Part shown: one piece after another, positions 9,726 to 26,531 of the stretch
Numbering within the stretch: the first letter of the stretch is position 1
How the letters are laid out: every line of letters starts with the position of its first letter
Source of the DNA: an uncultured Candidatus Saccharibacteria bacterium
GTDB taxonomy: Bacteria; Patescibacteriota; Minisyncoccia; Phycocordibacterales; PALSA-1337
Assembly (NCBI GenBank): GCA_964645315.1
Contig: CAZYBH010000004.1
Span: forward strand, 853 to 64,852
Direction: 5' to 3'
DNA: 64,000 nt
Notes under the pieces: model-generated
Told to the model about the DNA's origin: nothing
The model's database searches: none
What the model saw: only the letters and a program-made list of their open reading frames with translations
Made by a program: the position numbers and the translations under genes

Positions 9726-11078
9726 TTACAACATAGAACGAAGCTGATTTATTTCTTGTTCTAAGACAGTATCAGTCTTGATCTCCCCTTTTATCTTTTC
9801 GTAGGAGTGAATGGCTGTCGTATGGTCGCGACCACCAAGCTTCTCGCCGATCGAAGGGAAAGATACACCAAAATCTTCTCTCAAAAGGAAAATGATAACT
9901 TGTCTTGGTCTTACAACCTCTTTTCTACGGGTTTTATTGTAAATACTTTCTTCATCAATATTGTAAAATTCGGATACAACCTTGACGACATCTTTGATCA
10001 TAACCGTCTTTTTTGGTTTCGAGCTATTTTTGAGGATGTTTTTTACTTCATTTACGGTCAATTCTCGATTTCTAAGTTGGGTCTGACAAGCAATGACATT
10101 GATTATACCTTCTATCTCACGGATATTGTCGCTTATGGCTTCGGTAATAAGACCAATAGCTTCTTCTGGTAGAGATATAGAATGAGTAGCGCACTTTGTT
10201 TTGACTATGGCATTTCGAGATTCATTGTCTGGTTCGGGTATATCGACTATCATACCGACACTAAACCTACCTCTCAAACGATCCTCAAGGCCAGGAATGA
10301 CATTTGGGTGGCGATCAGAAGAAAAGATAAGTTGTCTTCCGGTATCGTGGAATGTATTGAAGAAATGAAATAATTCTTCTTGAAACTTCTCTTTATTTGA
10401 GAAGAATTGGACATCATCCATGATAATAACGTCGTATTTCCTGTATTTGTCTTTGAATGGCTGGACCTTACCTTCTTGGATGGCGACGAAAAACTCTGAT
10501 CCGAACTTTTCGGAGGTAAGATAATAGACTTTTTTGTTTGGGAAACTAGTCTTGATCTGATTGCCAATAGCTTGGATAAGGTGGGTTTTGCCTCTACCAG
10601 TAGAACCATAGACGAAAAGCGGGTTATAGACCATTCCTGGGCTTTTGATGACCGCTTGGGATGCTGCATGAGCCAATTCATTGAATGGGCCAACAACGAA
10701 ATTTTCGAAGGTATATCTGGGATTGAGATTGTCTTCTTTGTTTATGTAGAAATCCTGCAAAGGCATGGATATAGTCTGAGCAGAAAGGAGCTTTTTGTTC
10801 ATTTCTCCCCTCTTTTGGGCATCATCTTTGATAATAATGTACTCCAAAGCCCTGACATGATCATTTAGCTGTCTTAATATTCTTAAAATAGAATTGTGGA
10901 ATTTCTTATGAAGCCATTCTTGAGTAAAAGAATTTGGAACACCAAGATATACAACACCGTCTTCTTCCCTAATAATATTTGTCTCCTTGAACCATGTAGA
11001 AAAGTTTGCCTGGGAAACTCCAGATTGAATCTCGATCAAAGCCGTTTGCCACATCTTTGAAAAGTCTTGCATGCACAT
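9726..11078 (-). CDS. dnaA: Chromosomal replication initiator DnaA
   Basis: AAA+ Walker A GSTGRGKTHLIQAIGN, Walker B VIIMDDVQF, C-terminal DNA-binding helix GRDHTTAIHSYEKI. Start set at the ATG (MCMQDFSKMWQTAL) rather than the TTG-extended ORF reaching 11150. Confidence 0.93.
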   Translation of the reverse strand: MCMQDFSKMWQTALIEIQSGVSQANFSTWFKETNIIREEDGVVYLGVPNSFTQEWLHKKFHNSILRILRQLNDHVRALEYIIIKDDAQKRGEMNKKLLSAQTISMPLQDFYINKEDNLNPRYTFENFVVGPFNELAHAASQAVIKSPGMVYNPLFVYGSTGRGKTHLIQAIGNQIKTSFPNKKVYYLTSEKFGSEFFVAIQEGKVQPFKDKYRKYDVIIMDDVQFFSNKEKFQEELFHFFNTFHDTGRQLIFSSDRHPNVIPGLEDRLRGRFSVGMIVDIPEPDNESRNAIVKTKCATHSISLPEEAIGLITEAISDNIREIEGIINVIACQTQLRNRELTVNEVKNILKNSSKPKKTVMIKDVVKVVSEFYNIDEESIYNKTRRKEVVRPRQVIIFLLREDFGVSFPSIGEKLGGRDHTTAIHSYEKIKGEIKTDTVLEQEINQLRSML

Positions 11079-11268
11079 AGTATATACTTGTTTATAATTC
11101 TGAAAACTTGTGGAATGGTACAAAATATGTTGATAAGATGTTGATAACAATTTTTTAGTCTATTTTTAAAATAAATTATTAATTTTCCAAATTTCTAATT
11201 GTTTTGAACTGGATTTAATATAATTATTTTAAACTTGAAAAAATTTATAAATACTGTATAGTGTCTCC
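11079..11268. promoter_or_regulatory. Putative oriC / dnaA promoter region with tandem DnaA-box-like repeats and an AT-rich unwinding stretch
   Basis: Two direct TGTTGATAA repeats (one mismatch to TGTGGATAA) at 11128-11136 and 11139-11147. The same 9-mer occurs in inverted orientation at 9706-9714 between dnaA and dnaN. An AT-rich block follows at 11150-11268. Divergent rpmH/dnaA gene organisation. Confidence 0.5.
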
Positions 11269-11750: not shown

Positions 11751-12512
11751 ATGTACAATACACTAATATTTACTCCTCTCTATAATATTTTGGTAGAGAT
11801 AATGAATCTAATTCCAGGTATCGGTCTTGGTGTGGCAGTGATTATATTTACTATAGTTATAAAGGTTATTCTCTTCCCTTTGACCAAGAAGGCGCTTATT
11901 ACACAAGTCAAAATGAAGGCTATAGAACCCGAAGTCAATAAGATCAGGCTTCAGTATGCAAATAATAAGCAAGAGCAGGCCATCAAAATAATGGAATTTT
12001 ACAAAGCAAAAAATATTAAGCCTTTATTCGGTGTTTTGCTCATGTTTATTCAGTTGCCAATACTTTTTGCTTTGATTTCGGTTATTTATCATGTTATCCC
12101 TGAGGTCAATCCACAATATTTGTATTCTTTTGTAACCGTTCCTCATATTAGTACAACATTGTTTGGTATAGATATTACAAACAAAAGTTTGATTTTGGCT
12201 TTGCTTGTGGCTGTTTCTCAATATATTCAGCTCAAATACTCTGTTTCGATGCGCCAACAAAAATCCGTTAGTGACAAAATTTTGAAGAATGGTGGCAAAC
12301 TAGATGCACCATCCGAGATAGCAAACAATCTAAACAGTCAGATGAAAATCATGATGCCTATTTTGGCCTTTGTTTCGGTTTATTGGCTTATTCCTATCAA
12401 GTTCCCTGCCGCTTCGTCGGTTATCGCCATATATTGGATAGTAAGTTCACTCTTCACTCTTGCTCAAGAGTTGTATATCAAACGCAAACATCTAGGAGAA
12501 GAGATTGCTTAG
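11751..12512 (+). CDS. yidC: Membrane protein insertase YidC/Oxa1 (short form)
   Basis: Multi-TM 253-aa protein with a YidC-like core (KAL...QVKMKAIEPEVNKIRLQYANNKQEQ...FYK...NIKP); canonical rpmH-rnpA-yidC order. Confidence 0.88.
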   Translation: MYNTLIFTPLYNILVEIMNLIPGIGLGVAVIIFTIVIKVILFPLTKKALITQVKMKAIEPEVNKIRLQYANNKQEQAIKIMEFYKAKNIKPLFGVLLMFIQLPILFALISVIYHVIPEVNPQYLYSFVTVPHISTTLFGIDITNKSLILALLVAVSQYIQLKYSVSMRQQKSVSDKILKNGGKLDAPSEIANNLNSQMKIMMPILAFVSVYWLIPIKFPAASSVIAIYWIVSSLFTLAQELYIKRKHLGEEIA

Positions 12513-13798
12513 ATACCGACAAGATCTAGAGACCAAAGACTTAGATCGTCTTTGTTCATGAAGAATAGATAATCATCTTTGCTATCAGTGCTTAAATTGA
12601 AAGCATTTATTAGGCTATTACTGTTTAGGAGATTTGCTATCAATCGTACATCAGCGGATTTTATATTGTATTGCCAGATTTTGTCATTTGAAGTGACAAT
12701 TCCCTTATACCAATCATCTGGATAGACAGCGTTTGTAGGCAAAGAAGGTGTAGCACAATACAATAGCTCTTTATAGAAATTACCCCAAGTACATTTTTCT
12801 GCCAAGGTGCGCAATGTAGTCTCTATTGGCGTGCTTGAACCAACTTTGTATATATTTGTAAGAATATTTTGTTCCTTACCGGTTGAAGAGGTCAAAACAT
12901 ATTTTGCATCTTTACTGGTCTTTGTTGCTAGACCATTTATCGGACCAAGGATTTTTTTGAATAGGCCGGTTTTTGGATTGACGAAATATAAATATCCAGA
13001 GACATAAGCGCCTGCTTTTGTAGTGATTGAAATAGTATTTTCTTCCGGCCACTCAGATACTACTTGAGTAAGTGGTTGAGTGAAGATTTTTGTTACAGAA
13101 GTACCGTCAAATTTGGATATATAACCGACTCCTTGACCGTTTTCTTTTATTAGCATGAAAATCCTATCTCTCTTGGGAGAAACAGCATAAGCAATCATGT
13201 TTTCTGGCAGATTTTTGCCTCTCAAATTGTAAGGGGTAATGTTTGTCGTTGTGGCTTGAGTCGAACTGGCTTGTTTATTGAGTTTTGCATAGACAACATT
13301 TGGTGTATCAGAATTTGCTGGTATGATCGTGCCGATAAGAGCACCCAAATCTTTGCTCCAAACACTTTCATACATTCTAGGTATAACAGTGTTTGATAGT
13401 GTAGCAATCTCTGTACTATCGCCTTTGGTCTCCAAGACATTGCCCCTACCCCTCTCTATCCAGCGTATAATAGTCGTACTTGCAGTCGTGCTTGCTCCAT
13501 AACCACCGACGGGCTCTTGGCTCAATTGCCTAAGGCTTGGGGCTTTCTCATTTGAGATTGTAGATTGATTGCTTGAGCTTGTGGCCTCGGTTGTCTGGTT
13601 TGTATCGGGAGTTGTGGTGTTTTGTTGATCAACCATCTTGCCTCCAATAGGTACGAAACCTCCACTACTGCCATTGTTTGGATTTTGATTGGTTTGTAGA
13701 GTGCCATTGCCTGGTCCATAGAAGAACATATACCAATATACCCCACCAGCGATGAGTAGAAGTAGTACCGTGAAAATTATTATTTTTGTGGGTTTCAT
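12509..13798 (-). CDS. Bitopic protein: N-terminal TM anchor, Ser/Thr/Asn-rich linker, beta-rich extracytoplasmic domain (last gene of the T4SS-like operon)
   Basis: N-terminal hydrophobic helix IIIFTVLLLLIAGGVYWYMFFY; low-complexity linker; no recognisable catalytic motifs. Confidence 0.5.
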   Translation of the reverse strand: MKPTKIIIFTVLLLLIAGGVYWYMFFYGPGNGTLQTNQNPNNGSSGGFVPIGGKMVDQQNTTTPDTNQTTEATSSSNQSTISNEKAPSLRQLSQEPVGGYGASTTASTTIIRWIERGRGNVLETKGDSTEIATLSNTVIPRMYESVWSKDLGALIGTIIPANSDTPNVVYAKLNKQASSTQATTTNITPYNLRGKNLPENMIAYAVSPKRDRIFMLIKENGQGVGYISKFDGTSVTKIFTQPLTQVVSEWPEENTISITTKAGAYVSGYLYFVNPKTGLFKKILGPINGLATKTSKDAKYVLTSSTGKEQNILTNIYKVGSSTPIETTLRTLAEKCTWGNFYKELLYCATPSLPTNAVYPDDWYKGIVTSNDKIWQYNIKSADVRLIANLLNSNSLINAFNLSTDSKDDYLFFMNKDDLSLWSLDLVGI

Positions 13799-13800
13799 AA

Positions 13801-15030
13801 TTATTTTAGATACTCATTTTGATCTATGTCATTTATCATTGAATCACAATCTGAATCGAAAAGCTTTTTTAATTCAGGATCAGGACTTAATGATTGGCCA
13901 TTAGATTTTATTATTCTGGTCCAGGATTTCAAAAACTTAGTAGCTGCATCTTTGGAAGGAAAAGTTACGATCGTACCATCCGCATTGACCATTTCAACTT
14001 TTCCAGACGGTTTAATTTCTCTTACAGACATATTTGCAAGTTTAATCCTCTGAAGATTCAAGAGGTTTTGTCCGTAGGTGTCCAAGCGGTTAATTGGTTC
14101 AATGTCTACGGCTCCTACTTCTTGCAAATTTTTTATTCTCCTGTTTTTTAATTCAGTCAATGAGTCCTTATTTTTTCCTATTTCTTTCATTGCACGTTGC
14201 ATATCTTCCTGATTATACTTGTCTTCAAATGCTCCATCTATTCTGTTCAATGAGTCTCTTATGAGTCCATTTACATCTATCTTAAATTCGCTAATATTTA
14301 GACTTATAATTTTTTCGCTTACAATTTGAAGCTCACTTGCCCATTGTTTTTCGAGTTCTGATATTAGTTTTGCGTTTTCGGTAGAAGAAGCGGCGCTTTT
14401 GAGCTCGTTAATTTTTTTGGCAGTTTCGTTTGCTTTCGCAATAGCTTCTCGCAGCTCTGTTTTATCAGCACTAACCTCATTACCTATTTCATATCCTCGC
14501 ATCGTGTATTTTGATGTATCAGAAGCAACTGAATTCATAAGTTTTGCATACGCGTCATTTGCAAGTTCTGAATTAAAAGTTATTTCTGGTACCAAAGTAT
14601 TTGGTATTTCGGTAAGTCGAGGATCGACGGTGCGAAGAATTATAAATGAAGTTAGAACTAAGACAAGGCCTATAATGGCATTCTTTGCTCGATCAAGACT
14701 AGATTTTTTGTTTGTAACCGAGGTTGTGATTATGTATTCAAGACCTCCCCAGACCAATTGGACTACAGCGAAAGCGGCAGAAAGAGCGATGAGTAGATTG
14801 AAGGTATATTGAACATAAGTTTTGAAGTCTACTGTTTCCACCAATGAACCATTGCCATCTTTACAAGAGATTCCATTTCCCTCTATACATGGAAGTGGTG
14901 CTAGTACTGTATATTTACCATCAGAAGTGGTTTCGGCACCTCTCGATATGTGTGGCGTTGCTACAAGGCCAAGTCCTATCGATAAGGTTATAGTTAGAGC
15001 AAGGAGATTTTTTTTGAAATTATAAGACAT
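13801..15030 (-). CDS. Signal peptide + VirB2/TrbC-like two-helix pilin module fused to a ~270-aa coiled-coil C-terminal domain
   Basis: Cleavable signal peptide (…PHISRGAE), then two hydrophobic helices (FNLLIALSAAFAVVQLVWGGLEYI / IIGLVLVLTSFIILRTV) separated by a short basic loop (TNKKSSLDRAKNA). This is the topology of VirB2/TrbC pilins. The C-terminus is predicted coiled coil. The call rests on topology only. Confidence 0.4.
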   Translation of the reverse strand: MSYNFKKNLLALTITLSIGLGLVATPHISRGAETTSDGKYTVLAPLPCIEGNGISCKDGNGSLVETVDFKTYVQYTFNLLIALSAAFAVVQLVWGGLEYIITTSVTNKKSSLDRAKNAIIGLVLVLTSFIILRTVDPRLTEIPNTLVPEITFNSELANDAYAKLMNSVASDTSKYTMRGYEIGNEVSADKTELREAIAKANETAKKINELKSAASSTENAKLISELEKQWASELQIVSEKIISLNISEFKIDVNGLIRDSLNRIDGAFEDKYNQEDMQRAMKEIGKNKDSLTELKNRRIKNLQEVGAVDIEPINRLDTYGQNLLNLQRIKLANMSVREIKPSGKVEMVNADGTIVTFPSKDAATKFLKSWTRIIKSNGQSLSPDPELKKLFDSDCDSMINDIDQNEYLK

Positions 15031-15031
15031 A

Positions 15032-16048
15032 TTAATTATTGTTGGTGTCTATAGAATTAAACCTAATGGTAAAGTTTGAGCTGGCTTTTTGGAGTATGTC
15101 TTTTTTGTTTTTGATTGTTAATTCGATATTTGATGCACCGGATGAATTTTCTGGAGCACGGAGAGTAACTGATTGATTTTGAGATAATTCTGGTTTTTCG
15201 TAGTTATTTATCATCCATGTAAGTAGAAGATTGCCCAATCCATTGATTGGTTTATTGAAACCATAAGGTTGCATTATGACACTAACCTCTTTTTCTTTGC
15301 CGATAACGATATTTTCTGGCAAGATTTTGTTGTAAAGTGGTCCATATAGCGGATCATCGATATAAAAATTGAGACTAGGTGAGGCATAGCTTATGTTTAT
15401 GTATCCGGAGACTTTTTTCTGACCATCTCTTGTAAAAGCCGTGACTGTAATGGTCGTATCTCTGGGCACGATTTCACCCACTAGATTGAAACTTTGTTTG
15501 CCATAGCCACTTTGATCTTCGACACTTCGACTATTTCTCTTCCATTCATAAACAAGATTTTTTGGATCGTATTCTACACCTTTGGAATCAGCCAAATGAG
15601 GAATAGCAATAATATTTAGAGAATTTTGATAGGACACTGGTAATTTGCCCAAAAAGAGCGGTGGTGTATGGCCATCATTTTCTACAATCAAGTCTATAGA
15701 ACCAGAGCCGACTGACAATTTTCCTGAAACGCTAATGCCGTTTGATGAAAGGGCTTGGACTGTGACCAATGTCTCTTTGCCAAGAGCTGGGGCGGTGATC
15801 TCGTAGGAAGTTAGACCTGTACCCTTTTGGACTACCTTGTCATTTACTGACCAGGTCACATTTGCAGAATCTATATCTATGCTATAGCTACGCGCTCGGA
15901 TTGAGACTTTTTGACCTGGAGCGGGACTATCTATAGATGCGGTAAGCTCTAGACTATTTGCACTTACAGGTACACCTTGAGCATGAGCAAAGTCAAACTG
16001 AAATATAGAAAATGTTAGAGAAAATAATAAGAACAGAATTCTATTCAT
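15032..16048 (-). CDS. Secreted beta-rich protein (signal peptide), T4SS-like operon member
   Basis: Signal peptide MNRILFLLFSLTFSIFQFDFAHAQG; no TM beyond it; no identifiable domain. Confidence 0.55.
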   Translation of the reverse strand: MNRILFLLFSLTFSIFQFDFAHAQGVPVSANSLELTASIDSPAPGQKVSIRARSYSIDIDSANVTWSVNDKVVQKGTGLTSYEITAPALGKETLVTVQALSSNGISVSGKLSVGSGSIDLIVENDGHTPPLFLGKLPVSYQNSLNIIAIPHLADSKGVEYDPKNLVYEWKRNSRSVEDQSGYGKQSFNLVGEIVPRDTTITVTAFTRDGQKKVSGYINISYASPSLNFYIDDPLYGPLYNKILPENIVIGKEKEVSVIMQPYGFNKPINGLGNLLLTWMINNYEKPELSQNQSVTLRAPENSSGASNIELTIKNKKDILQKASSNFTIRFNSIDTNNN

Positions 16049-16081
16049 GGCTATATTTTAGCACAACAATTACAAAAACTA

Positions 16082-16519
16082 TTAGTCCAATCTTGGTGGA
16101 CGCACACCATTTTCATTGACCGGACTGGAACTATTGTAATTTGCATTTGAAGGCAATCTTACACCATCTTGGTATGCTGGCTTTCTTGGGTTGGAATATA
16201 TCTCTTCTTCGGCTTGTCGTTGTTTAAATTGAGCGTTGTCTTTTCGTGAAGCTTGATGAATGTAGAAAATATCTACTATCCAGGCCGGTGCAATTCCAAC
16301 AGAAAAAAACTCAGCTGCAGCAGTAAAACCAAGAAGTGAAATCAGTCTTGTGGGATGTTTTGTTAGATCTAAACCCCGCAATTTAAAATAACCAAAGAAT
16401 CCAATACCTATAAAAACATCAGCTAATAGATCAGCACCAGGAAAAAATATCTGAACAATATCGATTATAATAGCTACTATATAAACAAATATCCACTCGA
16501 TTATTCCTATTTTTGACAT
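16082..16519 (-). CDS. Small polytopic membrane protein (about 3 TM) with a Pro/Asn-rich tail, T4SS-like operon member
   Basis: Hydrophobic segments IIEWIFVYIVAIIIDIVQIFF, VFIGIGFFGYF, LISLLGFTAAAEFFSVGIAPAWIV. Confidence 0.55.
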   Translation of the reverse strand: MSKIGIIEWIFVYIVAIIIDIVQIFFPGADLLADVFIGIGFFGYFKLRGLDLTKHPTRLISLLGFTAAAEFFSVGIAPAWIVDIFYIHQASRKDNAQFKQRQAEEEIYSNPRKPAYQDGVRLPSNANYNSSSPVNENGVRPPRLD

Positions 16520-16520
16520 A

Positions 16521-18332
16521 TTATTGACCGGATTGCTCCAATTGCTTCTTTGCTTCCTTGATCTGCATAACTTGGGCTGGATTTGTGGTAATGATCTGAT
16601 CCTCGGTGTACGAACCTACGATTTTGATGGCGACATGCTTGAGTCCTACGAAGAATATACCCTCTCCCACGTCAGATTCTAGTAATAGATATTTCTCTTC
16701 ATCAGTAAGATTGAAGGTTTTTTGGATATGATCAATAACGGTTGGAGATTGCTTGAGTAGGATTTGCATTGAAGAGTTGGTAAGAATTGGCAAACCGTAA
16801 GGAGATTTGAGGAAGTCGTCCACGTCTTGGGTAATAGTTGCAAGACCAAGGAAATATTTGCGACCTCTCTTCGCTAGACCGAAAAGGAATGAGGCAGTAT
16901 CTTCTGATTTCATCATCCACCACGCCTCATCAATAACAAGAAGTCTTTTCTTGAGATTTTTGCGGATTGCATTCCAAATATAGTGAGTAACGATGTACAT
17001 AGCTACTGGTTTCAATTCGTCTTCCATGTCTCTTAGTGAAAAGACCACGAAGCGCTTATTGATATCGACATTTGTGGGACGATTGATGAAACTTGACCAG
17101 GTACCCTTTGTATATTTTGTAAGTCTTTGGACCAAAGATTCGGTGCCTTCCATTCCTGTCAAAACTAATTCGAAATCGGAAAGAAGCGGTGGCTCTATAT
17201 TGGCAAAATTGGATTCTGGAGTTATGTCTTTCAAAGCGTAGGTTTCGGTTATTGCCCTATCGATAATAGCGTCTTCTTCTTGAGTAAGCCCACCAAGCAT
17301 GATGCGGAATAGTCCAACTAGGTTTATTATATTTGAACGCAGAACATCACTAGCGGATTCATCTTCTCTTGGTATTGGTAGATCAAAAGGATTGATATGG
17401 TGTTCGGAATTGAGAGAAATGTTGAAATATTTGCCACCAGTAGCTGTGGACATATACTCATATTCTTTTTCGGGATCGATAACTATAACATCTGTATCAA
17501 ACATCAATGTTCTCAATATTTCTAGCTTGGTACAGTAGGATTTACCAGAACCAGCAACGGCAAAAGTAACTGAATTGTAATTTTCTAGGCTAAATCGATC
17601 AAATAAGACCAAAGAAGAATTGTGTCTATTTATGCCATAAAGTATGCCTTTGTCTGAAGTCAGGTCAAAAGAAACAAATGGAAATAGTGAAGAAAGTGGT
17701 GATGAATTGAGCTTTGAATTGACTTGAAGCATATCGTCACCTATCGGTATTACACTCTTGAAACCCTCTTCTTGTTGGAATAGGGCTGGTTTTACATAGA
17801 CAAGTTTGGATTCTAGTATTGATTTTATTTCTGATTCCAATTTGTCTAGCTCATTTTCATTGTCGGCAAAGATTGTAATATAAACACCAACATCAAAAAG
17901 GTGCTCTTGAGCTTGCATCAATTGATCGCGAAGATTTTCGAGATCTTGATAGGCTGTATCGAGCGATGGTTCGCGGACTAGACCCTTCTCTTCTCTTCTT
18001 GCTATCTGGCTTTGGACTTCAGCTACTTTCTTTTTGAAATGATGGAGAATCTTGGCTGTATCGACTGGATGAATGAAAATTGAAACATTAAAAACCTTGT
18101 CGAGATTGATTATTGGAGCAAACCAACCTTCATCGACAAATCTTGGATATGAAATGACGAAAAGTGTTCTGCCGATCTTTTCGCCTAAGTTGATATCTTT
18201 TGGGCTAATTTTGAGGGCGGAAGGAGCGATAATGTCTCTCAATTCCAAAACTCCAGCTTGATATATCTCTTCAGGCAAAACTGAGACTATTGGATCCTCT
18301 TTTTTACCAAATAATTTTGAAAAAAATGCCAT
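16521..18332 (-). CDS. virB4: VirB4/TrbE/CagE-family type IV secretion ATPase, ATPase (C-terminal) portion
   Basis: Walker A FAVAGSGKSYCTK; hallmark VirB4 Walker B LLVIDEAWWMM (DEAW); motif GLATITQDVDDF. Its start lies 1 nt after the stop of the upstream N-domain ORF. Confidence 0.8.
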   Translation of the reverse strand: MAFFSKLFGKKEDPIVSVLPEEIYQAGVLELRDIIAPSALKISPKDINLGEKIGRTLFVISYPRFVDEGWFAPIINLDKVFNVSIFIHPVDTAKILHHFKKKVAEVQSQIARREEKGLVREPSLDTAYQDLENLRDQLMQAQEHLFDVGVYITIFADNENELDKLESEIKSILESKLVYVKPALFQQEEGFKSVIPIGDDMLQVNSKLNSSPLSSLFPFVSFDLTSDKGILYGINRHNSSLVLFDRFSLENYNSVTFAVAGSGKSYCTKLEILRTLMFDTDVIVIDPEKEYEYMSTATGGKYFNISLNSEHHINPFDLPIPREDESASDVLRSNIINLVGLFRIMLGGLTQEEDAIIDRAITETYALKDITPESNFANIEPPLLSDFELVLTGMEGTESLVQRLTKYTKGTWSSFINRPTNVDINKRFVVFSLRDMEDELKPVAMYIVTHYIWNAIRKNLKKRLLVIDEAWWMMKSEDTASFLFGLAKRGRKYFLGLATITQDVDDFLKSPYGLPILTNSSMQILLKQSPTVIDHIQKTFNLTDEEKYLLLESDVGEGIFFVGLKHVAIKIVGSYTEDQIITTNPAQVMQIKEAKKQLEQSGQ

Positions 18333-18333
18333 A

Positions 18334-18975
18334 TTATCTAATTTGAATTGGCTTTTCGGTCTCGCCAGGATTGAAAAGCTTATAATATAATTCTACCACT
18401 TCTTCGGTACCTAGCTCGGCTGTTCTTATCCCACATCTTACAAGTCCTTGCTCTACGACAGCTATTCTCTGCTCAAGCTGGCTTCTATTTTCTTTGAATT
18501 GCATTTCGGCCGTCTCTTTTTGATCTTTGCCATGCGATCTACCAGGGAGAATCCTGGTAAGAGGATTGTTCGATATGCTTTGAGGGATCGGATCATAAGG
18601 CACTACGACAAAGAAACTTTTTGACATAATGTTTGTATTTTCTACAAAAGCCTTTACGAATTCTATATACTCGCGGACTTGAATTTTCATCAATTCGCTA
18701 ACCTGCTCTTTGTATCGATCTTCCAATAAAGCAATATATGGCCTTATATCGAGCTTTTTTGATTGGATTACAATTTGAACTGAGAAATCCAATGAGTTTA
18801 GGAAATTTTGGAATTGGAGAAGTATCGAAGCTTGCTCATCTTGAGACTTAAGAGCGAAGTTTAGAGATGAGGCCAATACAATAGATCTCATGCCTCCGTT
18901 TTTGAGGATAATAACCCCATCGCGAATCTCTTGAATGGGAACAAATTCTTGAGTTGTTTTTGAAGCTGTAGCCAT
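18334..18975 (-). CDS. VirB4 N-terminal domain encoded as a separate ORF (split VirB4)
   Basis: The pattern QEIRDGVIILKNGGMRSIVLASSLNFALKSQDEQ... matches the conserved start of VirB4/TraC N-domains (I-x-DG-x-I-x-x-x-G-x-x-x-x-x-I-x-L-x-G-x-x-F-x-L). 213 + 603 aa equals a typical full-length VirB4. Confidence 0.6.
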   Translation of the reverse strand: MATASKTTQEFVPIQEIRDGVIILKNGGMRSIVLASSLNFALKSQDEQASILLQFQNFLNSLDFSVQIVIQSKKLDIRPYIALLEDRYKEQVSELMKIQVREYIEFVKAFVENTNIMSKSFFVVVPYDPIPQSISNNPLTRILPGRSHGKDQKETAEMQFKENRSQLEQRIAVVEQGLVRCGIRTAELGTEEVVELYYKLFNPGETEKPIQIR

Positions 18976-19433
18976 TATTTTTGATTTTGATTAGAGTACA
19001 TACTCTCTTTGATATCCAATGACCATGTGAGATCTTTGAGTTTGCTGTCGGAGATTTTTGGTACCATAACTGAAGCGTAATTTTGATTTTCTTGAGCTTT
19101 ATCTTGCTTTTTGATGGGTTTATCGGACTTTTTCCAGATATATAGTTTGCTATTTGTATAATAATGAAAAGCTGATTCTAGTACACTGACGAAAGGTTTG
19201 TTGTTTATCTTGAGAAATGCCAAAGCGCTAGATGCTCCCATGATTATTGCTGCTGGGAATAATGAAAGGATGAAGTTGTCCAATATGACATATATGATAA
19301 ACGACAACCCTGCCCCACCGACGAGATAAATAAACTGCTTTAGGGTTAATTGCCCAAAGATCTTATCTTCCACTTCAATAAATTGAGGAACTTGGAATCG
19401 CATCGAATATATTATAACCCAAGCACAAAACAA
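18975..19433 (-). CDS. VirB3-like small membrane protein
   Basis: Immediately precedes the VirB4 N-domain ORF with a TAATG stop/start overlap. Contains a FGQLTLKQFIYLVGGAGLSFIIYVIL segment followed by a second hydrophobic helix, as in VirB3/TrbD/PrgI-type proteins. Confidence 0.5.
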   Translation of the reverse strand: MFCAWVIIYSMRFQVPQFIEVEDKIFGQLTLKQFIYLVGGAGLSFIIYVILDNFILSLFPAAIIMGASSALAFLKINNKPFVSVLESAFHYYTNSKLYIWKKSDKPIKKQDKAQENQNYASVMVPKISDSKLKDLTWSLDIKESMYSNQNQK

Positions 19434-19441
19434 AGTCTTGT

Positions 19442-21199
19442 TTATTCTATTGGTTCGCGATACGGATCGCCTTTATTGGATGTGCTTGGTCTTGAAATTG
19501 GACTAGGAATTGGCTTCGATTGATCAGTGAAGACCTTGTCACTGATGAAATGTGGCTTTGCCGGCTCCTCCACTTTGTCTTCAAGCATTTTTTCGGCCTG
19601 TTTGAAGTTATTTGGATCACTGATATCTATCGAAGGACTATTTTGGGCGATTTGCGATCTGATATCATTCCTCAATTCTTCTTGACTAGGTTCTGGCTTT
19701 TTTTCTTCCACTTTTGGTTCTTCGGTTTTCTTGATATTTTGCTTATCAAGTAAATTGATCGATTCTGCTGGAGGATTGCTTTCTATTGCTTTTATTGTTT
19801 CTTCGGCGACCTTTATATTGGCATCTTTTTTTGGCTCTTCGGCTGGAATCTGGCTAATTAATTTATTTAGCTCTACATCAATTGGCTTGGGGTTTGGCGT
19901 TTGTACTGGTATTGATGTTTGTATTGGTGTTTCTGTCGGAGTAGGTATGGTATCTGGAGTAGAAACTGGTGCTTGCACAGGTTCTGGCATATGTCTGACT
20001 TCTGCTGTGTCTGGTCTTACAACTTCTACGGATTCTTCTGTTGGCAAATTTGCTGGTATAGCAACCTCCTCTTTTTGCGGTTTAAACTCGTTTGTTCCTC
20101 CTTCTACAGTATTTTTGACCGTTTCTTCTTCAGTCTGATGTTCTTTTATTGCATCGTATAAATCAAAACTTGGTTTTGCATTTTCATCATCTTCTATATC
20201 AGAGTATTCGCCACTTTTGTTATCACTTTCATTATTATCGACTTCACCTTCTTCTTCCTCTTCCTTATCTGACTTCGTTTCCGTGTATTCATTTTTTCCC
20301 TCATCCTCTTCAATATCTGACTTCACTTCCCCATCTTCAATTTTTTCTTGATCCGCTTCTACTGTTTCCTCGTTTTTCTTTTCTCTTTTGTCCTCTGCTA
20401 TCTTTGCACTTTCATCGGTGTTTTCTGATTTTGATTCTGTTTCTGTATTTTGCTCTTCCCTGCTTTCTTCATTTGCACTAGAAAAATTGTAGTAAGTATG
20501 AGGATCAAAGTTTGATGCAACTTCATTTTCTGTGCTTACTATCTTTTCCTCCGTAATAGGTTTAATTTCTTCAGCTTTTATTTTTTGTTCAGGAATTTTC
20601 GCTTCCTCTATTTTTGTAATTGGTACATCTACTTTTGGTTTTGGAGCAATGCTATAAGCTTCTGAAGCTTTTTGTTCTTCCATAGCTCTTTGTTTTGCCA
20701 AGTATTCCCTTCTCTCTTGCATCATTTCTAATTCTGTCGGTACTGTAGTTTCAATTTTGAAATCACCAGCGCTTTCGAGGTCGGCGTGAGGAGACTCCTC
20801 CGCATCTTCTTTATCAATTCTGCCAAATTGACCAGAATTGGTCTTATAAGTTTCATTTACAATTTTTGGCGATGGAGCAGTATGGTTTTCGGATGATCTC
20901 ATAGACTCTCTTATTGAAGAGAATACTTTATCGCTAATCTCGGCAGTAATAATTCGGGCTTGTTTTTCGCCAATATTTAGTTCTCGAGCTAATGTTTGAG
21001 TGAATTGATTTTGTGGTATCAAGCCGAGCATTACATAGCTAGTAACATCAAATAAAATATCCATTTGGTCCAAAAGCAAGCCAAATTTACTGGATATTTC
21101 TTTTATATTTTCTGCGACTTGCGGAGAAGTCATGGCGAATTTGACTTCATCTGGAAGTGAAAGAAATTTATCTTCTATTGTTGAATAATCGAATTCCAT
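19442..21199 (-). CDS. Large acidic, low-complexity protein with a ~100-aa structured N-terminal domain (T4SS-like operon member)
   Basis: 585 aa; the N-terminal region looks globular; the remainder is E/K/D/T/P-rich and predicted disordered. The opposite-strand ORFs at 19520-20481 are compositional shadows. Confidence 0.6.
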   Translation of the reverse strand: MEFDYSTIEDKFLSLPDEVKFAMTSPQVAENIKEISSKFGLLLDQMDILFDVTSYVMLGLIPQNQFTQTLARELNIGEKQARIITAEISDKVFSSIRESMRSSENHTAPSPKIVNETYKTNSGQFGRIDKEDAEESPHADLESAGDFKIETTVPTELEMMQERREYLAKQRAMEEQKASEAYSIAPKPKVDVPITKIEEAKIPEQKIKAEEIKPITEEKIVSTENEVASNFDPHTYYNFSSANEESREEQNTETESKSENTDESAKIAEDKREKKNEETVEADQEKIEDGEVKSDIEEDEGKNEYTETKSDKEEEEEGEVDNNESDNKSGEYSDIEDDENAKPSFDLYDAIKEHQTEEETVKNTVEGGTNEFKPQKEEVAIPANLPTEESVEVVRPDTAEVRHMPEPVQAPVSTPDTIPTPTETPIQTSIPVQTPNPKPIDVELNKLISQIPAEEPKKDANIKVAEETIKAIESNPPAESINLLDKQNIKKTEEPKVEEKKPEPSQEELRNDIRSQIAQNSPSIDISDPNNFKQAEKMLEDKVEEPAKPHFISDKVFTDQSKPIPSPISRPSTSNKGDPYREPIE

Positions 21200-23151
21200 T
21201 ATCTAATTAATTTTGCATTATCAATCATATCTTGTAGATCATCTGTTCCCATTTGTGTAATATCGGTCGATCCTGCTGGTCCCCTTGTTGCCGCAGCAAT
21301 TTTTGCCTGCAAATCGCCCTCCTCGCGTAAGTTTAATGGACTAGCTGCTCCAAACCTAGCTTTCTCTCTTCTAATGTCAACTTGAACAGTCTCAAGTTTC
21401 TTCTTAAGATCGCCAATTGCCTCCTTCTTTTTATCGAGCTGCTTTTGCCAGACATCGATATTGATTTTTGCTGCAGCTGCTTTATTTTTTCTAGCTATTT
21501 TTGTAAATAAAGTTTCCGGATTAGCCATTCTACCCGCAATTCTTTTGGCGTAATCTGCCTGTCTTTCTTTTTGCTTGTTTGTTACGGCAGTTCCTAGCTG
21601 TCTCTTGAGATTTTCAACGTTTGCTTTATGCATATCGGCCATAGCTGTTCGTCCGGCTGCCCTCTCAATCTTCTCCATTGCAGACTCATCACGAATTAAT
21701 TCACCAGCTTCTCTTTTCATTTTTTGTACAGCTCCCTCATCAAAACCAAGAGAATTAGCAAAGTCTGTTCGCTCTTTTACCTGTTTATCAAGTTTTTCAT
21801 TGTAACTTTTTGCAGCACCGCGCAAATTATTTAGGGCAAATTGGCCTAAAGCATTTTTGGCTGCAAAATTTTTGACACCTTCAAGATTTGCCAACTTGCT
21901 AGCGGCTCTTCCTCCTGTATTTTGCCAAGCAGTGGCACCGGTACTATTCCAAGTTCTATTTCCAATAGTTTTCCAAATAGACAAAGCATCAAACTTACCT
22001 TTGTACTTGCTAATTATTTGTGTAGACCAGCCACCCATACTCAAAGCAACGAAAAGCGGTAGGTTTAGGACGACAATAACTATAGCGAAATTTACACCGA
22101 TTATAATAAATGGAAGAAGCCAGTTTGTACCTGTCATAGATGCATCATTCAGTGTATTACCGGTATCGAAAAATTCACTACCATTCAGAATAGAAAGCCC
22201 GACATACATAAGTAGTAGATATGTAGGCAAAAATATCAATTGTGCTTTGAGTTGAGTGGTAAAAAATGAAAAATGCTTCTTTACATCTGGTAATACCATG
22301 CCCGCCCAGTGCATAGATGAAAAGGCTAAGAGGAAAATTAGAACAACGGTTCTTGCCATCACTGCTATGGAGGCTAGAAGGAAGCTAATTCCAGTGGTAA
22401 ACATCATGACTACTCCAGCTAGACTAATGAGAGCAATTTTGACTGGATTTCCAAGGTTTGTACCAAGTTTATTGCCATTTGAATCGTATATTTTTTGAAT
22501 TCTAAGACTATTCATAAATATATTGGAAATATTGGCTTTTGAGTCACTTGCGACAATAGATGTTAGATTATTATCTTTATCAATTTTCACAACATTGTGT
22601 GTTGGTAGTATTGCATTGTATATTGCCTGAGAGACAATATTTGAAGCATCGATACCTACACTTGTAATGAAGAAGCTAAAATTAACAAGTACACCGGCAA
22701 TTACTATGTTTTTTATGGTTTTGCCATAATTACCCTCTCCCCAACCAGTGATCATCTGTATGGCTGCATAAAGCAAGTAGAAGATAAAGGCCATACCTGT
22801 AATGTCTCTCAATATTCTCCAAGTAGAAAATACGGCTGGGGTGGCATTGACAAAGTCTTTTATATTGAGAGTTAATCTCATGGCAACATCGAAGATATAG
22901 GCGCAAAAACCGAGGAATGTGGCGGTCGTAGACATTGCGAAAACTCCAATCATTGCCACTAGAGAATTGAACATATCTTGCAAACTCTCCGAACCAAATA
23001 TTTTTGCAAGCACGCTATTTCCTTGATTGTTAACATTTGACTGTACAGCTGAGCCAGTAGGTTTGTCTTGAGCAAATACAGGTGAAGCAATAGCAAAAAC
23101 ACTTGTTATTATCAGACTAAATATTAAGATTTTTGCTAATGTTTTTTTCAT
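21199..23151 (-). CDS. VirB6/TrbL-like polytopic membrane protein with signal peptide and a long charged coiled-coil C-terminal tail
   Basis: Signal peptide (…SPVFAQD); at least 6 predicted TM helices across residues ~60-380; about 270-aa K/E/R/A-rich C-terminal region. Co-operonic with VirB3/VirB4. Confidence 0.55.
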   Translation of the reverse strand: MKKTLAKILIFSLIITSVFAIASPVFAQDKPTGSAVQSNVNNQGNSVLAKIFGSESLQDMFNSLVAMIGVFAMSTTATFLGFCAYIFDVAMRLTLNIKDFVNATPAVFSTWRILRDITGMAFIFYLLYAAIQMITGWGEGNYGKTIKNIVIAGVLVNFSFFITSVGIDASNIVSQAIYNAILPTHNVVKIDKDNNLTSIVASDSKANISNIFMNSLRIQKIYDSNGNKLGTNLGNPVKIALISLAGVVMMFTTGISFLLASIAVMARTVVLIFLLAFSSMHWAGMVLPDVKKHFSFFTTQLKAQLIFLPTYLLLMYVGLSILNGSEFFDTGNTLNDASMTGTNWLLPFIIIGVNFAIVIVVLNLPLFVALSMGGWSTQIISKYKGKFDALSIWKTIGNRTWNSTGATAWQNTGGRAASKLANLEGVKNFAAKNALGQFALNNLRGAAKSYNEKLDKQVKERTDFANSLGFDEGAVQKMKREAGELIRDESAMEKIERAAGRTAMADMHKANVENLKRQLGTAVTNKQKERQADYAKRIAGRMANPETLFTKIARKNKAAAAKINIDVWQKQLDKKKEAIGDLKKKLETVQVDIRREKARFGAASPLNLREEGDLQAKIAAATRGPAGSTDITQMGTDDLQDMIDNAKLIR

Positions 23152-23152
23152 T

Positions 23153-24742
23153 TTATTGAACGTAACCTATACACATATAATTGTATTGACTCAATCTACC
23201 ATCGAGTTCCCTTGCTTTTGCTCTTGCTTCTGCAAGTTCGGTATCTGCCGAATCTATCTTAGATATCACACTAGCACCTCCGTTTGTAAGATAATCTGTA
23301 TACTTTACTGTTTGAGGTTGAATTTGATTTGAAGGATCATTTTCTACAGCATTGAGCATATCTTGAAGAGTTTTCTTTTCTTTCATACCGTCGTCATATT
23401 TCTTTTGATATTTTTGAATTAGAGGATCAATTTCATTGAATACAGTATTATCTATATCAGTAAGACCACCATTGAATCCTGTGCTATTTTGTCGTTCTGC
23501 AAGGCAAGATCTTACCGAGGTATATTTATTTCTTATAGCTGTCAATTCTGCTACAGCTACTTTATATTGATCTGTATACTTCGGAACTTGGGCTATAGAA
23601 GTGCTTATCGAATCCTTAAGCGATCCGGCTGTGTTCTTTAGAGCTTCTTGAGAGCTAATTTCTTTTGCCATAATTGATGAAGCAGAATTACTACCTCCAG
23701 AACTAAAGTTTTTCAAACCGCCACCCAAAACTTCCATTGTTAGTCTTGATACTAGTGCGGAGATGATTGCGTTTATATCATTTGCAAGCTCGAGTTCTAC
23801 AGTTGGAACATTGAGGCTTGTGTGTAGCTGATTTGCAATGACCGAACCTGGAGTCTGTGTTTCGCAAGTCTGGACTGTCTCAGTACCATTTTTATTTTTC
23901 TTGACTCTAGTACCAGCATCATTGCCTACAATGCCGTTAACTTCTTGTACTTGACCTGCATCTTCAGGATCATAAGTACCACCGGGCACATCCTTACAGC
24001 TTTGCCATGACATGAATCCTTGACCAAGCTGGAGATCGGCTCTTATAACATTTTGTCTTGAATTTATCCTTGCATCCAAATCAGCTTGAGCAGAAAGGAA
24101 TGCTCCATAAGGATTGTTTTGTGGTTCGGTAGTGAGAGCGAGGAATGCTGGCCAGCCACCTTGATTGAAATCACCTTTTAGGAATCCATTGTATGAGCTA
24201 TTGCTTGATCGTACTACTTTGCCATTTACTATTATGTCCGGACCATTCTTCTGGGCTTCTATTATTTTGCCAACCGTACATGTATATCTTTCGGTTGTCA
24301 GATTTGTCTTGCTTAGAGCAAGTGAAAGTCTAATATCTATTGCAAAAGGTGAACAGAGTGCTGATAGTGGTCCATTTGTAGCTAAGAATGCTCCGGTCAC
24401 TTGATCTGCGGCATCTAGGAAAAATGCTCCAGGATTGGACAAAAATGCTGGACTTCCCTCAAAGCCGTGATTTATCCAGTTGATGACATCTAGAGTAATT
24501 TTGTGTAATAGTTGTTTTGCTGCCAAAACCGCTGCTTTGTTTAGGACGAAATCTTTTAGATGGGTCCAAGTCAAGTTTAGGTAATTGGAAATACCTGTTG
24601 GGCTAGTATCTGCATTGACTATTACGCTATCTGCAACTCCGGCAACAGCATGAACTCTTCCAATATTTACAAATATGCTAGAAATAAAAATTGACAATAC
24701 AAGCAGTTTTAATATTAATTTTTTTGTTGAGGAAAAATTCAT
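23153..24742 (-). CDS. Secreted 529-aa protein (signal peptide), T4SS-like operon member
   Basis: Signal peptide MNFSSTKKLILKLLVLSIFISSIFVNIGRVHA; no TM afterwards; no recognisable catalytic motif. Confidence 0.55.
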   Translation of the reverse strand: MNFSSTKKLILKLLVLSIFISSIFVNIGRVHAVAGVADSVIVNADTSPTGISNYLNLTWTHLKDFVLNKAAVLAAKQLLHKITLDVINWINHGFEGSPAFLSNPGAFFLDAADQVTGAFLATNGPLSALCSPFAIDIRLSLALSKTNLTTERYTCTVGKIIEAQKNGPDIIVNGKVVRSSNSSYNGFLKGDFNQGGWPAFLALTTEPQNNPYGAFLSAQADLDARINSRQNVIRADLQLGQGFMSWQSCKDVPGGTYDPEDAGQVQEVNGIVGNDAGTRVKKNKNGTETVQTCETQTPGSVIANQLHTSLNVPTVELELANDINAIISALVSRLTMEVLGGGLKNFSSGGSNSASSIMAKEISSQEALKNTAGSLKDSISTSIAQVPKYTDQYKVAVAELTAIRNKYTSVRSCLAERQNSTGFNGGLTDIDNTVFNEIDPLIQKYQKKYDDGMKEKKTLQDMLNAVENDPSNQIQPQTVKYTDYLTNGGASVISKIDSADTELAEARAKARELDGRLSQYNYMCIGYVQ

Positions 24743-25695
24743 TATTTTTTATTTGTAATGAAAACCAAGCCATACTGATCAAATATAGTCTTCATATCAT
24801 CGACGGCCGAGCTGACTTTTTGGATTGAATCTAATTCGTGTCTGATGCCATTTAGAGCAGGAAGAGGATCTTTCTCTATATTTCTGATTACTTTTGCATT
24901 ATATATCTGCATCGAGACACCGTTTATAAGATTAAGATGTGGCAGTGCGAGCGTCTCTGGTACAGTGAGTGATTTGAGGCTATTGAGAGTTTTTTGGTAG
25001 CCAGAGATTATAGGATCGATATCCTTCAACAATTCCATATTGTCGGTTTCAAGAGCGCTCGTGACTATCTCTGCTTCATTTTTGTCAGGCATCCATTTGC
25101 TCAAAATACTCATGAGAGTTTCGGCGTAGTTTTTTATTGATTGAGCATCATTTGCATTTGGATTTATTTTTATGTCTTTGAGATCATAAACTTTTGCCCC
25201 GTCCATTTTGTCCAAACTTTCATTGATCAGTTGATTGGTTACTGATTCTACGGCACTGGCATTGTTGTTTAGGCCGGATTGTCTAAGTTCTGCGTATTTT
25301 GTAAAGAAATTTCTACTGAAAACTTCTGTGGCGGTTAGTTTTTGGTTTTGATTGGATTTGCTTATGTCGGTGGCTTTTTTTGTATCGACTTTTTGTTGTT
25401 TTTGATCGAAGAATTCTTTTTGCCAAGGCTCTTCCTTGAAACTTGTATCTTCTTTGACATTTATGATTGGTTTTACAGATTCGTTTTTGAATGAAACCTG
25501 TTTTGAGGAAGAAGGAAGGCCGTTTATCGCTATGTATGTACCAATAACAAAGAAGCCTGAAACAATAAATGTAATAAAAGTTTGGCTGCGTGGGTAGTAT
25601 TTAGCCATGCTATAAAGAATTATAGCAAAGAACCAAGCAAAATCGTATTTTTCTGTGGACAGTTTTATTGAATTTCTTTTGCAATCAAAAACCAA
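24742..25695 (-). CDS. Bitopic membrane protein (N-terminal TM helices + ~250-aa extracytoplasmic domain), first gene of the T4SS-like operon
   Basis: N-terminal hydrophobic helices FAWFFAIILYSMA / FITFIVSGFFVIGTYIAI. It overlaps the ksgA 3' end by 31 nt if the first ATG is used; a later start (M30) is possible. VirB8-like topology only. Confidence 0.45.
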   Translation of the reverse strand: MVFDCKRNSIKLSTEKYDFAWFFAIILYSMAKYYPRSQTFITFIVSGFFVIGTYIAINGLPSSSKQVSFKNESVKPIINVKEDTSFKEEPWQKEFFDQKQQKVDTKKATDISKSNQNQKLTATEVFSRNFFTKYAELRQSGLNNNASAVESVTNQLINESLDKMDGAKVYDLKDIKINPNANDAQSIKNYAETLMSILSKWMPDKNEAEIVTSALETDNMELLKDIDPIISGYQKTLNSLKSLTVPETLALPHLNLINGVSMQIYNAKVIRNIEKDPLPALNGIRHELDSIQKVSSAVDDMKTIFDQYGLVFITNKK

Positions 25696-26456
25696 GTCTC
25701 AACTGCTATTTCCTCTGCCCTAATTTTGGGATTAAGATTCAATTTTTGCCATATCGAGGCCAGCTTTTCTTTATTGGAAATGAAATTTTCGAGATTTTTT
25801 ATGGCAAATTTCCTCTTGTGAGCAAAAGCGGACTTGATCATTTGGAAAAAGGAGGAAATTTGGATATTTGATCTCTTGAATTGTTCGTCATTTATATCTT
25901 CTATTGATAAAATTGCAGAATCGACTGTTGGTGCTGGACTAAAAGCATTTCTCGATACTTTTGAGATGATCTTTGGTCGACCAAACGCTTTGACTGATAT
26001 AGATAGTATACTTTCTTTATTATCTTTTGTAATAATCCTATCGGCCACCTCTTTTTGGACTAGAAGAACCATTTTTGTAGGCCTTTTTTGACCTTCAAGA
26101 AACTTTTCTAGTATAGCTCCAGTAATATAATAAGGGATATTGGCTATAACCTTGAACGCAGAATCAGGAATATGGCTATCTGAAATCAAAATATCATCCT
26201 CAATAAGCTTTAATTGGTCATTATTTATATAATTGCTGAATTTTTGATCAAGTAAAGCTATTGCCCTACTGTCTTTTTCGATGGCTATGACTTTTGCTCC
26301 AGCATCGAGTAATCCTTGAGTCAAAATGCCCGTTCCGGGGCCAATTTCCAAGATAATTTCGTCTTTTTGAATGTTTCCAGCGGAAATAATCTCATCAAGA
26401 GCTTTTTTTGATGTTAGGAAATGTTGCCCCAGAGTTTTTTTTGCTTGCAAATTCAT
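25665..26456 (-). CDS. rsmA: 16S rRNA (adenine1518/1519-N6)-dimethyltransferase RsmA/KsgA
   Basis: N-terminus KKTLGQHFLTSKKALDEI; SAM-binding motif LEIGPGTGILT; length 263 aa. Confidence 0.9.
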   Translation of the reverse strand: MNLQAKKTLGQHFLTSKKALDEIISAGNIQKDEIILEIGPGTGILTQGLLDAGAKVIAIEKDSRAIALLDQKFSNYINNDQLKLIEDDILISDSHIPDSAFKVIANIPYYITGAILEKFLEGQKRPTKMVLLVQKEVADRIITKDNKESILSISVKAFGRPKIISKVSRNAFSPAPTVDSAILSIEDINDEQFKRSNIQISSFFQMIKSAFAHKRKFAIKNLENFISNKEKLASIWQKLNLNPKIRAEEIAVETWFLIAKEIQ

Positions 26457-26531
26457 TGTTTTATCTTAACTTATATTTATGATTTGTGAATGGTATTTTC
26501 AAATACAACTCTATTTCAATCTATAAATATT

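Follow-up and report, generated by a model that had tools for sequence, protein, structure and literature searches.

A probable two-gene VirB4, a TrsD-like protein and a truncated ATPase, in a chromosomal operon beside dnaA of a Patescibacterium

In Patescibacteria, TrsD is the most abundant type IV secretion system (T4SS) component. A total of 2,272 homologues were reported, 1,664 of them associated with virB4, and the protein, for which a function was not assigned, was described as a remote homologue of the N-terminal part of VirB4 (Quinonero-Coronel et al. 2025, Microb Genom, PMC12102498). TrsD was listed as essential in Southlakia epibionticum, and the Patescibacterial T4SS cluster was found to be often located near dnaA, dnaN and ksgA (PMC12102498). 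The S. epibionticum T4SS cluster SEML1_0006-0019 was shown to be essential by transposon sequencing (Wang et al. 2023, PMC10633639). In the single-chain VirB4 of R388 (TrwK), the N-terminal domain takes up residues 15-400; dimerisation is mediated by this domain, and VirB3 is wrapped around it (PMC9259494). Here, a 64,000-nucleotide (nt) stretch of Patescibacterial DNA (assembly GCA_964645315.1, contig CAZYBH010000004.1, positions 853 to 64,852; hereafter the window) was analysed, in which a VirB4 was encoded by two adjacent open reading frames (ORFs) separated by a single base.

Based on all analyses, it was concluded that this locus is, with high probability, a genuine and ancient two-gene VirB4 in a chromosomal T4SS-like operon of a Paceibacteria-type Patescibacterium, beside dnaA and dnaN. 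The two genes, referred to as the N-piece and the C-piece, and the elements discussed below were located as follows (lengths in amino acids, aa).

18334..18975, minus strand: N-piece, a TrsD-like or 'TraC-like' protein of 213 aa, with the stop codon at 18334-18336
16521..18332, minus strand: C-piece, a VirB4-type ATPase of 603 aa in which the ~180 residues that begin a full-length VirB4 are missing
18330..18336, minus strand: gene junction TAA-T-ATG, consisting of the N-piece stop, one spacer base and the C-piece start
17655..18332, minus strand: second half of the VirB4 N-terminal domain (C-piece residues 1-226)
16587..17654, minus strand: VirB4 C-terminal ATPase domain (C-piece residues 227-582)
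17535-17555 and 16920-16943, minus strand: Walker A and Walker B motifs, respectively, within the C-piece

The minus-strand sequence of the junction (18320-18345) was read as CAA ATT AGA TAA T ATG GCA TTT TTT T, followed by CA. The stop codon TAA occupied positions 18336-18334, the spacer T position 18333 and the ATG positions 18332-18330. The reading frame of the C-piece was +1 to that of the N-piece. The coordinates, the one-base spacer, the differing frames and the run of seven T (T7) given in the initial annotation were all reproduced when the window was read again.

The identity of the C-piece was established by profile and sequence comparisons. The protein matched the NCBIfam model NF045971 of the CD1110-family VirB4 over positions 179-732 of 752 (E 2.8e-112, 376.4 bits, cut-off 325) and the VirB4_plasma model over positions 293-891 of 894, and its scores were under the cut-offs of the TIGR00929, TIGR02746 and VirB4_plasma models. 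The Pfam matches were P-loop_TraG (E 5.5e-26), AAA_10 and DUF87. The ATPase motifs that the initial annotation had ascribed to the 603-aa ORF were located as the Walker A motif AGSGKSY (aa 260-266) and the Walker B motif LLVIDEAW (aa 464-471). Residues 227-582 were aligned by phmmer to residues 8-388 of the chain of the crystallised VirB4 C-terminal domain 4AG5 (E 3e-38). Residues 1-226 matched N-terminal domain positions of the TraC/VirB4 models instead, namely TIGR02746 from position 255 and Pfam TraC_F_IV over positions 265-351 of 375. A match to the PADLOC profile mad8 over the ATPase domain (E 9e-16) was judged to reflect generic ATPase-domain similarity and not a defence function.

The N-piece was found as a stand-alone protein between the gene of a PrgI family protein and the 5'-truncated virB4. 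It matched the VirB4_plasma model (NCBIfam) over positions 100-233 of 894 with an E value of 1.9e-13, and the CD1110-family VirB4 model over positions 2-111 of 752. These matches agreed with the VirB4 N-terminal pattern noticed earlier in the 213-aa ORF. The Pfam family PF26593 'TraC-like' was present in the precomputed annotation of the exact protein and of its homologues. A local Pfam-A scan of the N-piece returned no family, even at E 10, and a sequence search against the chains of the Protein Data Bank (PDB) gave nothing meaningful (best E 1.6).

Further, the N-piece was modelled by AlphaFold2 from 94 homologues, and the predicted structure had a mean predicted local distance difference test score (pLDDT) of 88.6. 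When the model was compared with the PDB by Foldseek, the 14 best matches were all TrwK/VirB4 of R388 (E 1.7e-4 to 7e-3, probability 1.0) at a query-normalised template modelling (TM) score of ~0.5, and the next PDB match had an E value of 0.35. Among PDB entries, the link of the N-piece to VirB4 was thus recovered by the fold search only, the sequence search having been without a match. By its predicted fold, the N-piece corresponds to the first half of the N-terminal domain of VirB4, produced as a polypeptide of its own.

The matches of the two pieces were colinear, non-overlapping and complementary, and therefore both proteins together represent one VirB4 equivalent of 816 aa (213 + 603), in agreement with the normal length proposed by the initial annotation. 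The full VirB4 N-terminal domain of ~400 residues did not share one chain with the ATPase domain; it was complete only when summed over both proteins. In the initial annotation the two ORFs had been described as an N-domain and an ATPase. The division of VirB4 into two parts held, but the position of the break did not coincide with the domain boundary, because residues 1-226 of the C-piece precede the region aligned to 4AG5 and still belong to the N-terminal domain. Since the N-terminal domain of TrwK extends over residues 15-400, the break falls in the middle of the domain.

The alignment to orthologous loci that the initial annotation had suggested was carried out for related genomes. A set of 80 loci with a C-piece 76-93% identical to that of the window was fetched, and 79 of them, which included the upstream DNA, entered the counts. 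The genes of the N-piece and the C-piece were separate in 79/79 loci, so the split is conserved. The gene order of the window, with PrgI followed by the N-piece and the C-piece, recurred in these loci. The spacing between the stop of the first gene and the start of the second was highly variable: -4 nt (an ATGA overlap) in 7 loci, +1 nt in 12, 2-10 nt in 34, 11-30 nt in 11, 31-170 nt in 11 and 445-506 nt in 4. The relative frames 0, +1 and +2 were recorded in 21, 32 and 26 loci, respectively.

The ends of the two proteins that face the junction were conserved as well. The N-piece terminated in KiFNPGeTEKPIqi, and the C-piece started with MsiFdkLfgKK, a start that followed the pattern M-[SGA]-[IFL]-[FLI]-[DS]-x-L-[FKL] and retained its Met in all 79 loci. 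The T7 run was made up of codons of this Phe/Leu/Ile-rich start and was not kept as a homopolymer among the 79 loci. The protein lengths were stable at 213 and 603-604 aa over thousands of homologues. Each of the 120 best N-piece homologues had a length of 211-235 aa, and stand-alone N-pieces of 146-443 aa accounted for 149 of the 150 best cluster representatives at 50% identity (down to 35% identity). When the concatenated N- and C-piece was used as the query, 119 of the best 120 matches were C-only proteins of 602-617 aa. The closest homologues belonged to metagenome-assembled genomes (MAGs) of Paceibacteria/Parcubacteria, with 77-100% identity.

The exact 213-aa protein was present on 12 contigs. 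An 86-nt junction segment that included TAA-T-ATG and the T7 run was 100% identical in three assemblies of different samples, two from ENA and one from Logan. Between the window and its closest relatives, the proportion of changed non-synonymous sites (pN) was 0.07-0.16 for the N-piece gene and 0.04-0.09 for the C-piece gene, and that of synonymous sites (pS) was 0.75-0.98. Selection was expressed as pN and pS, since a synonymous divergence (dS) could not be estimated at saturated synonymous sites. The low number of non-synonymous changes against this saturation indicated that both genes are under purifying selection.

In 4 of the 79 genomes, a further gene was inserted exactly between the trsD-like gene and virB4. 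Its product of 123-142 aa matched TIGR02436, a 'four helix bundle protein', with E values as low as 5e-38. These inserts corresponded to the four longest gaps and were found at the following sites.

L038:1560-1934, TIGR02436 insert
L043:5619-5990, TIGR02436 insert
L059:2592-3020, TIGR02436 insert
L064:2999-3382, TIGR02436 insert

It looks as if a small gene, which may be mobile, had used one intergenic spot repeatedly. In one MAG (L008), the trsD-like gene carried a nonsense codon, TAG, near codon 31 and following ...GGMR. The gap of 111 nt that separated this gene from virB4 (at 6001) was filled with short tandem repeats of the 'cgaaata' type plus an inverted copy. The TAG and the repeats could be due to local decay or to assembly noise.

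Two proteins appeared to carry both pieces in a single chain. The protein P0271 (846 aa) was the top match to the concatenated query, with 74% identity over the full query. The DNA of its locus (L087:2660-2790) contained an in-frame TGA at the junction between both genes, and under table 11 it cannot be translated into this product. P0271 was therefore rejected as a fused VirB4 and regarded as an artefact of gene calling, with TGA translated as Trp. Other false fusions of this kind may exist wherever code 4/25 was applied to MAGs of Patescibacteria.

The only true single-chain relative found was P0171 (797 aa; NCBI GCA_964615945.1; L088:544-2937), which was encoded beside PrgI and near dnaA. 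Its residues 1-214 were 44% identical to the N-piece, and its residues 225-796 were 56% identical to residues 26-596 of the C-piece. A linker of ~10 residues connected the two parts, and the start motif that is usual for the C-piece was absent. The protein was encoded on a single 10.7-kb contig, and for this reason a re-fusion of the genes and an assembly indel look the same. In either case, at the level of sequence, P0171 confirms the colinearity of the two pieces and the rarity of their fusion.

The initial annotation had left several explanations of the junction side by side, of which a genuine split was the first, and the orthologous loci and the independent assemblies decided in favour of it. 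A sequencing or assembly error, that is, an indel in or near the T7 run that broke one 816-aa virB4 gene, was suggested by the homopolymer 5 nt after the ATG and by the fact that a single 1-nt shift would unite the frames. Such a fusion of frames would also need the TAA to be removed, however, and the three independent assemblies shared the identical junction, T7 run included. The genes were also separate in the other 79 genomes, with many different junction sequences, and the Met start of the C-piece was kept throughout, which left an error with a vanishingly small probability. A programmed +1 ribosomal frameshift, or a read-through of the stop, would yield one full-length VirB4, and in the window the C-piece frame, being +1 to that of the N-piece, was indeed open for several codons upstream of its ATG. 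Programmed frameshifting was nevertheless excluded, because the spacing (-4 to +506 nt) and the relative frames vary freely among the orthologues, which show all three frames in no fixed relation; some loci had ATGA overlaps, inserted genes or gaps of up to 506 nt. No slippery sequence was conserved among the 79 loci, where the T-run varied and reflected Phe/Leu/Ile codons, and the apparent fused protein P0271 was an artefact. Hence, we consider this explanation to be extremely improbable. A recent pseudogenisation, in which a decaying VirB4 was broken by a nonsense or frameshift mutation, could draw on the internal TAG in the N-piece of the related MAG L008. This outcome, also named by the initial annotation, was excluded because of the purifying selection on both genes, which were intact, strongly constrained while their synonymous sites were saturated, and of a length that was kept across the homologues. 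Neither a dN/dS close to 1 nor a scatter of disabling mutations over the orthologues was seen. Moreover, the homologous cluster is essential in S. epibionticum (PMC12102498, PMC10633639), and the chance of a pseudogene was regarded as negligible.

It was also considered that the 213-aa protein might not complete the N-terminal domain of the ATPase but might have arisen as a paralogue of the VirB4 N-terminus and diverged into an accessory subunit with a role of its own, for example as an adaptor, a regulator or an assembly factor. This explanation was in line with the faster evolution of the N-piece relative to the ATPase piece, with the additional N-terminal extensions of 40-120 residues in the N-pieces of Bacillota and with the TrsD homologues of Gracilibacteria that are not located beside virB4 (PMC12102498). 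On the other hand, the ATPase piece was devoid of exactly what the small protein supplies (model positions 1-178), the summed length was equal to that of a normal VirB4, the natural single-chain relative was colinear with the two pieces, and the genes were adjacent in all 79 loci. An accessory subunit was therefore judged to be quite unlikely.

Several observations weighed against a two-gene VirB4 and were taken into account. The N-piece also matched the NCBIfam model NF041427 (TrsD/TraD), with an E value of 4.3e-6 and 26.7 bits against a curated cut-off of 200. It evolved faster than the C-piece, the identities being 53-90% and 77-93%, respectively. The separate location of the Gracilibacterial TrsD homologues (PMC12102498) leaves room for a looser or an additional role of TrsD. 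A one-chain AlphaFold2 model of the N- and C-piece reached a mean pLDDT of 58, with most of the C part below 50 and not fit for use, because the rows of the C-piece alignment were all at least 89% identical. Finally, a coupling of the two genes by termination and reinitiation was deduced from the geometry of the junction (TAA-T-ATG) and the missing Shine-Dalgarno (SD) motif only, and is regarded as plausible.

For the two-gene VirB4 we proposed the following mechanism, modelled on the structure of R388. The N-piece and the C-piece would be translated separately and would then assemble non-covalently into a VirB4-like unit. The 213-aa piece would dock on residues 1-226 of the ATPase piece and thus complete the N-terminal domain. 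It would presumably sit towards PrgI/VirB3 and the membrane side, a placement proposed because VirB3 of R388 wraps the VirB4 N-terminal domain.

The ATG of the C-piece would most likely be reached by ribosomes that terminate at the TAA one base upstream and reinitiate, or by a non-SD start on the A/U-rich region. The family as a whole cannot depend on coupling, since in some lineages the two genes lie 45-506 nt apart, in four cases with an inserted gene between them. It would rather be a convenience of operon packing in the source genome than a requirement of the family. In the window, most junctions of a run of 14 same-strand genes (12509-28466, minus strand) were 1-nt gaps (TAA-N-ATG) or 1- to 4-nt overlaps. 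TAA-N-ATG junctions were found near 16520, 15031, 23152 and 8400, and the stop of virB4 itself formed a TAA-T-ATG. The TAA-T-ATG geometry is thus not special but is the habitual junction of the operon. Additionally, an SD-like motif was almost never present before the genes of the window, and for this reason its lack before the C-piece is normal. Many ATGs were located 5-10 nt after a TATAAT-like box (for example, at 565, 5622, 33510 on the minus strand, 39777, 56777 and 61578), which suggests that leaderless or non-SD initiation is the norm in the source genome.

The 14-gene run mixed T4SS-like genes with those of KsgA and a UvrD-like helicase and was located ~1.4 kb from dnaA and dnaN. The neighbouring genes with an assigned family were the following.

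18975..19403, minus strand: PrgI family (VirB3-like) membrane protein (Pfam PrgI, E 2e-9), directly upstream of the N-piece
13801..15030, minus strand: protein with a T4SS_pilin (VirB2-like) domain (Pfam PF18895, E 2.1e-7, 31.4 bits, cut-off 26.6)
9726-11150, within the window: dnaA
8401-9507, within the window: dnaN
25665-26456, minus strand: KsgA
26532-28466, minus strand: UvrD-like helicase

The probable start of the PrgI gene was the ATG at 19403, which gives a protein of 142 aa, with the ORF being open from a TTG at 19433. The gene calls for PrgI at the loci L084-L086 were also of 142 aa. The stop codon of this gene overlapped the ATG of the N-piece by 1 nt (TAATG at 18975). Six ORFs of the operon, all on the minus strand, had no Pfam or NCBIfam family: 19442-21199, 21199-23151, 23153-24742, 15032-16048, 16082-16519 and 12509-13798. 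One of them, directly upstream of PrgI, encoded an acidic low-complexity protein of 585 aa that was rich in Pro and Glu. A hydrophobic protein of 650 aa, also one of the six, could be a candidate VirB6-like component. No match to a relaxase or VirD4 was obtained in a general Pfam scan of the ORFs of 8.4-31.3 kb, the whole window not having been searched with dedicated profiles.

For annotation, these results mean that the 'hypothetical protein' of 213 aa and the 'DUF87 protein' of 603 aa are to be taken together as one VirB4 equivalent and not as a frameshifted or disrupted gene. The T4SS-like machine to which they belong is essential for the epibiotic life of Patescibacteria. The proposal that TrsD is the missing half of the VirB4 N-terminal domain is a concrete and testable structural hypothesis, which sharpens the published work and is not a discovery.

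The closest described system is that of TrsD and VirB4 in Patescibacteria, which has the same set and order of genes as the window (PrgI/VirB3-like, TrsD-like, VirB4 and VirB2-like pilin). The chromosomal place beside dnaA, dnaN and ksgA is also common to both, and no substantive difference was found. The two-gene arrangement is already known: it was published for Patescibacteria, has families in Pfam and NCBIfam, and is the same in Gram-positive plasmids. The complementarity of TrsD and the truncated VirB4 and the geometry of the junction are not spelled out in the published description (PMC12102498). What was added here is incremental: it was made explicit that the pieces complement each other, that their split point is shared and that the junctions vary, and one database 'fusion' was exposed as an artefact.

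In plasmids of Bacillota the genes follow the order PrgI, N-piece and a VirB4 of ~620-636 aa annotated as 'DUF87/ATP-binding', as in the window. These pairs are of the TrsD/TraD-TrsE/TraE type of Gram-positive conjugative plasmids, which form the pGO1 subclass of MPF-FATA (NCBIfam NF041427). The pieces of the three plasmids compared were of the following lengths.

Geobacillus pGspE55-1: 318 and 636 aa
Halobacillus plasmid: 345 and 622 aa, the small protein annotated as 'TrsD'
C. botulinum pCLJ: 257 and 620 aa, the small protein annotated as 'TraC family protein'

The C-pieces of all three started at the same homologous residue as that of the window, whose residues 17, 35 and 55 were aligned to residues 20, 32 and 57. 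The plasmid pieces differed in being 22-31% identical to those of the window and in having longer N-pieces (257-345 aa) with 40-120 extra N-terminal residues. In addition, the Bacillota systems are plasmid-borne conjugation machines, whereas that of the window is chromosomal and located at the origin. Judged from sequence comparison, the common split point fits a single old fission shared by Patescibacteria and the TrsD-containing (pGO1-type) Gram-positive systems. The Gram-positive side of this comparison is made up of pGspE55-1, the Halobacillus plasmid and pCLJ.

More tentatively, and with a rather low probability, the break within the domain might be a functional feature and not a neutral relic. 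For example, production, insertion or exchange of the PrgI/VirB3-binding half could then be independent of the ATPase half, and the hexamer-of-dimers could have a different stoichiometry or be assembled under regulation. In that case the common split point would connect, as a derived character, the essential T4SS of Patescibacteria with the pGO1/TrsD subclass of Gram-positive conjugation systems.

The single-chain TrwK of R388 (PDB 7O41/8RTD) and the CD1110-family VirB4 share with the two pieces of the window the fold of the N-terminal domain, the ATPase domain, the Walker motifs and a VirB3-like partner gene. Unlike the single-chain VirB4, TraC and TrwK, the VirB4 of the window consists of two polypeptides, divided in mid-domain within the N-terminal part.

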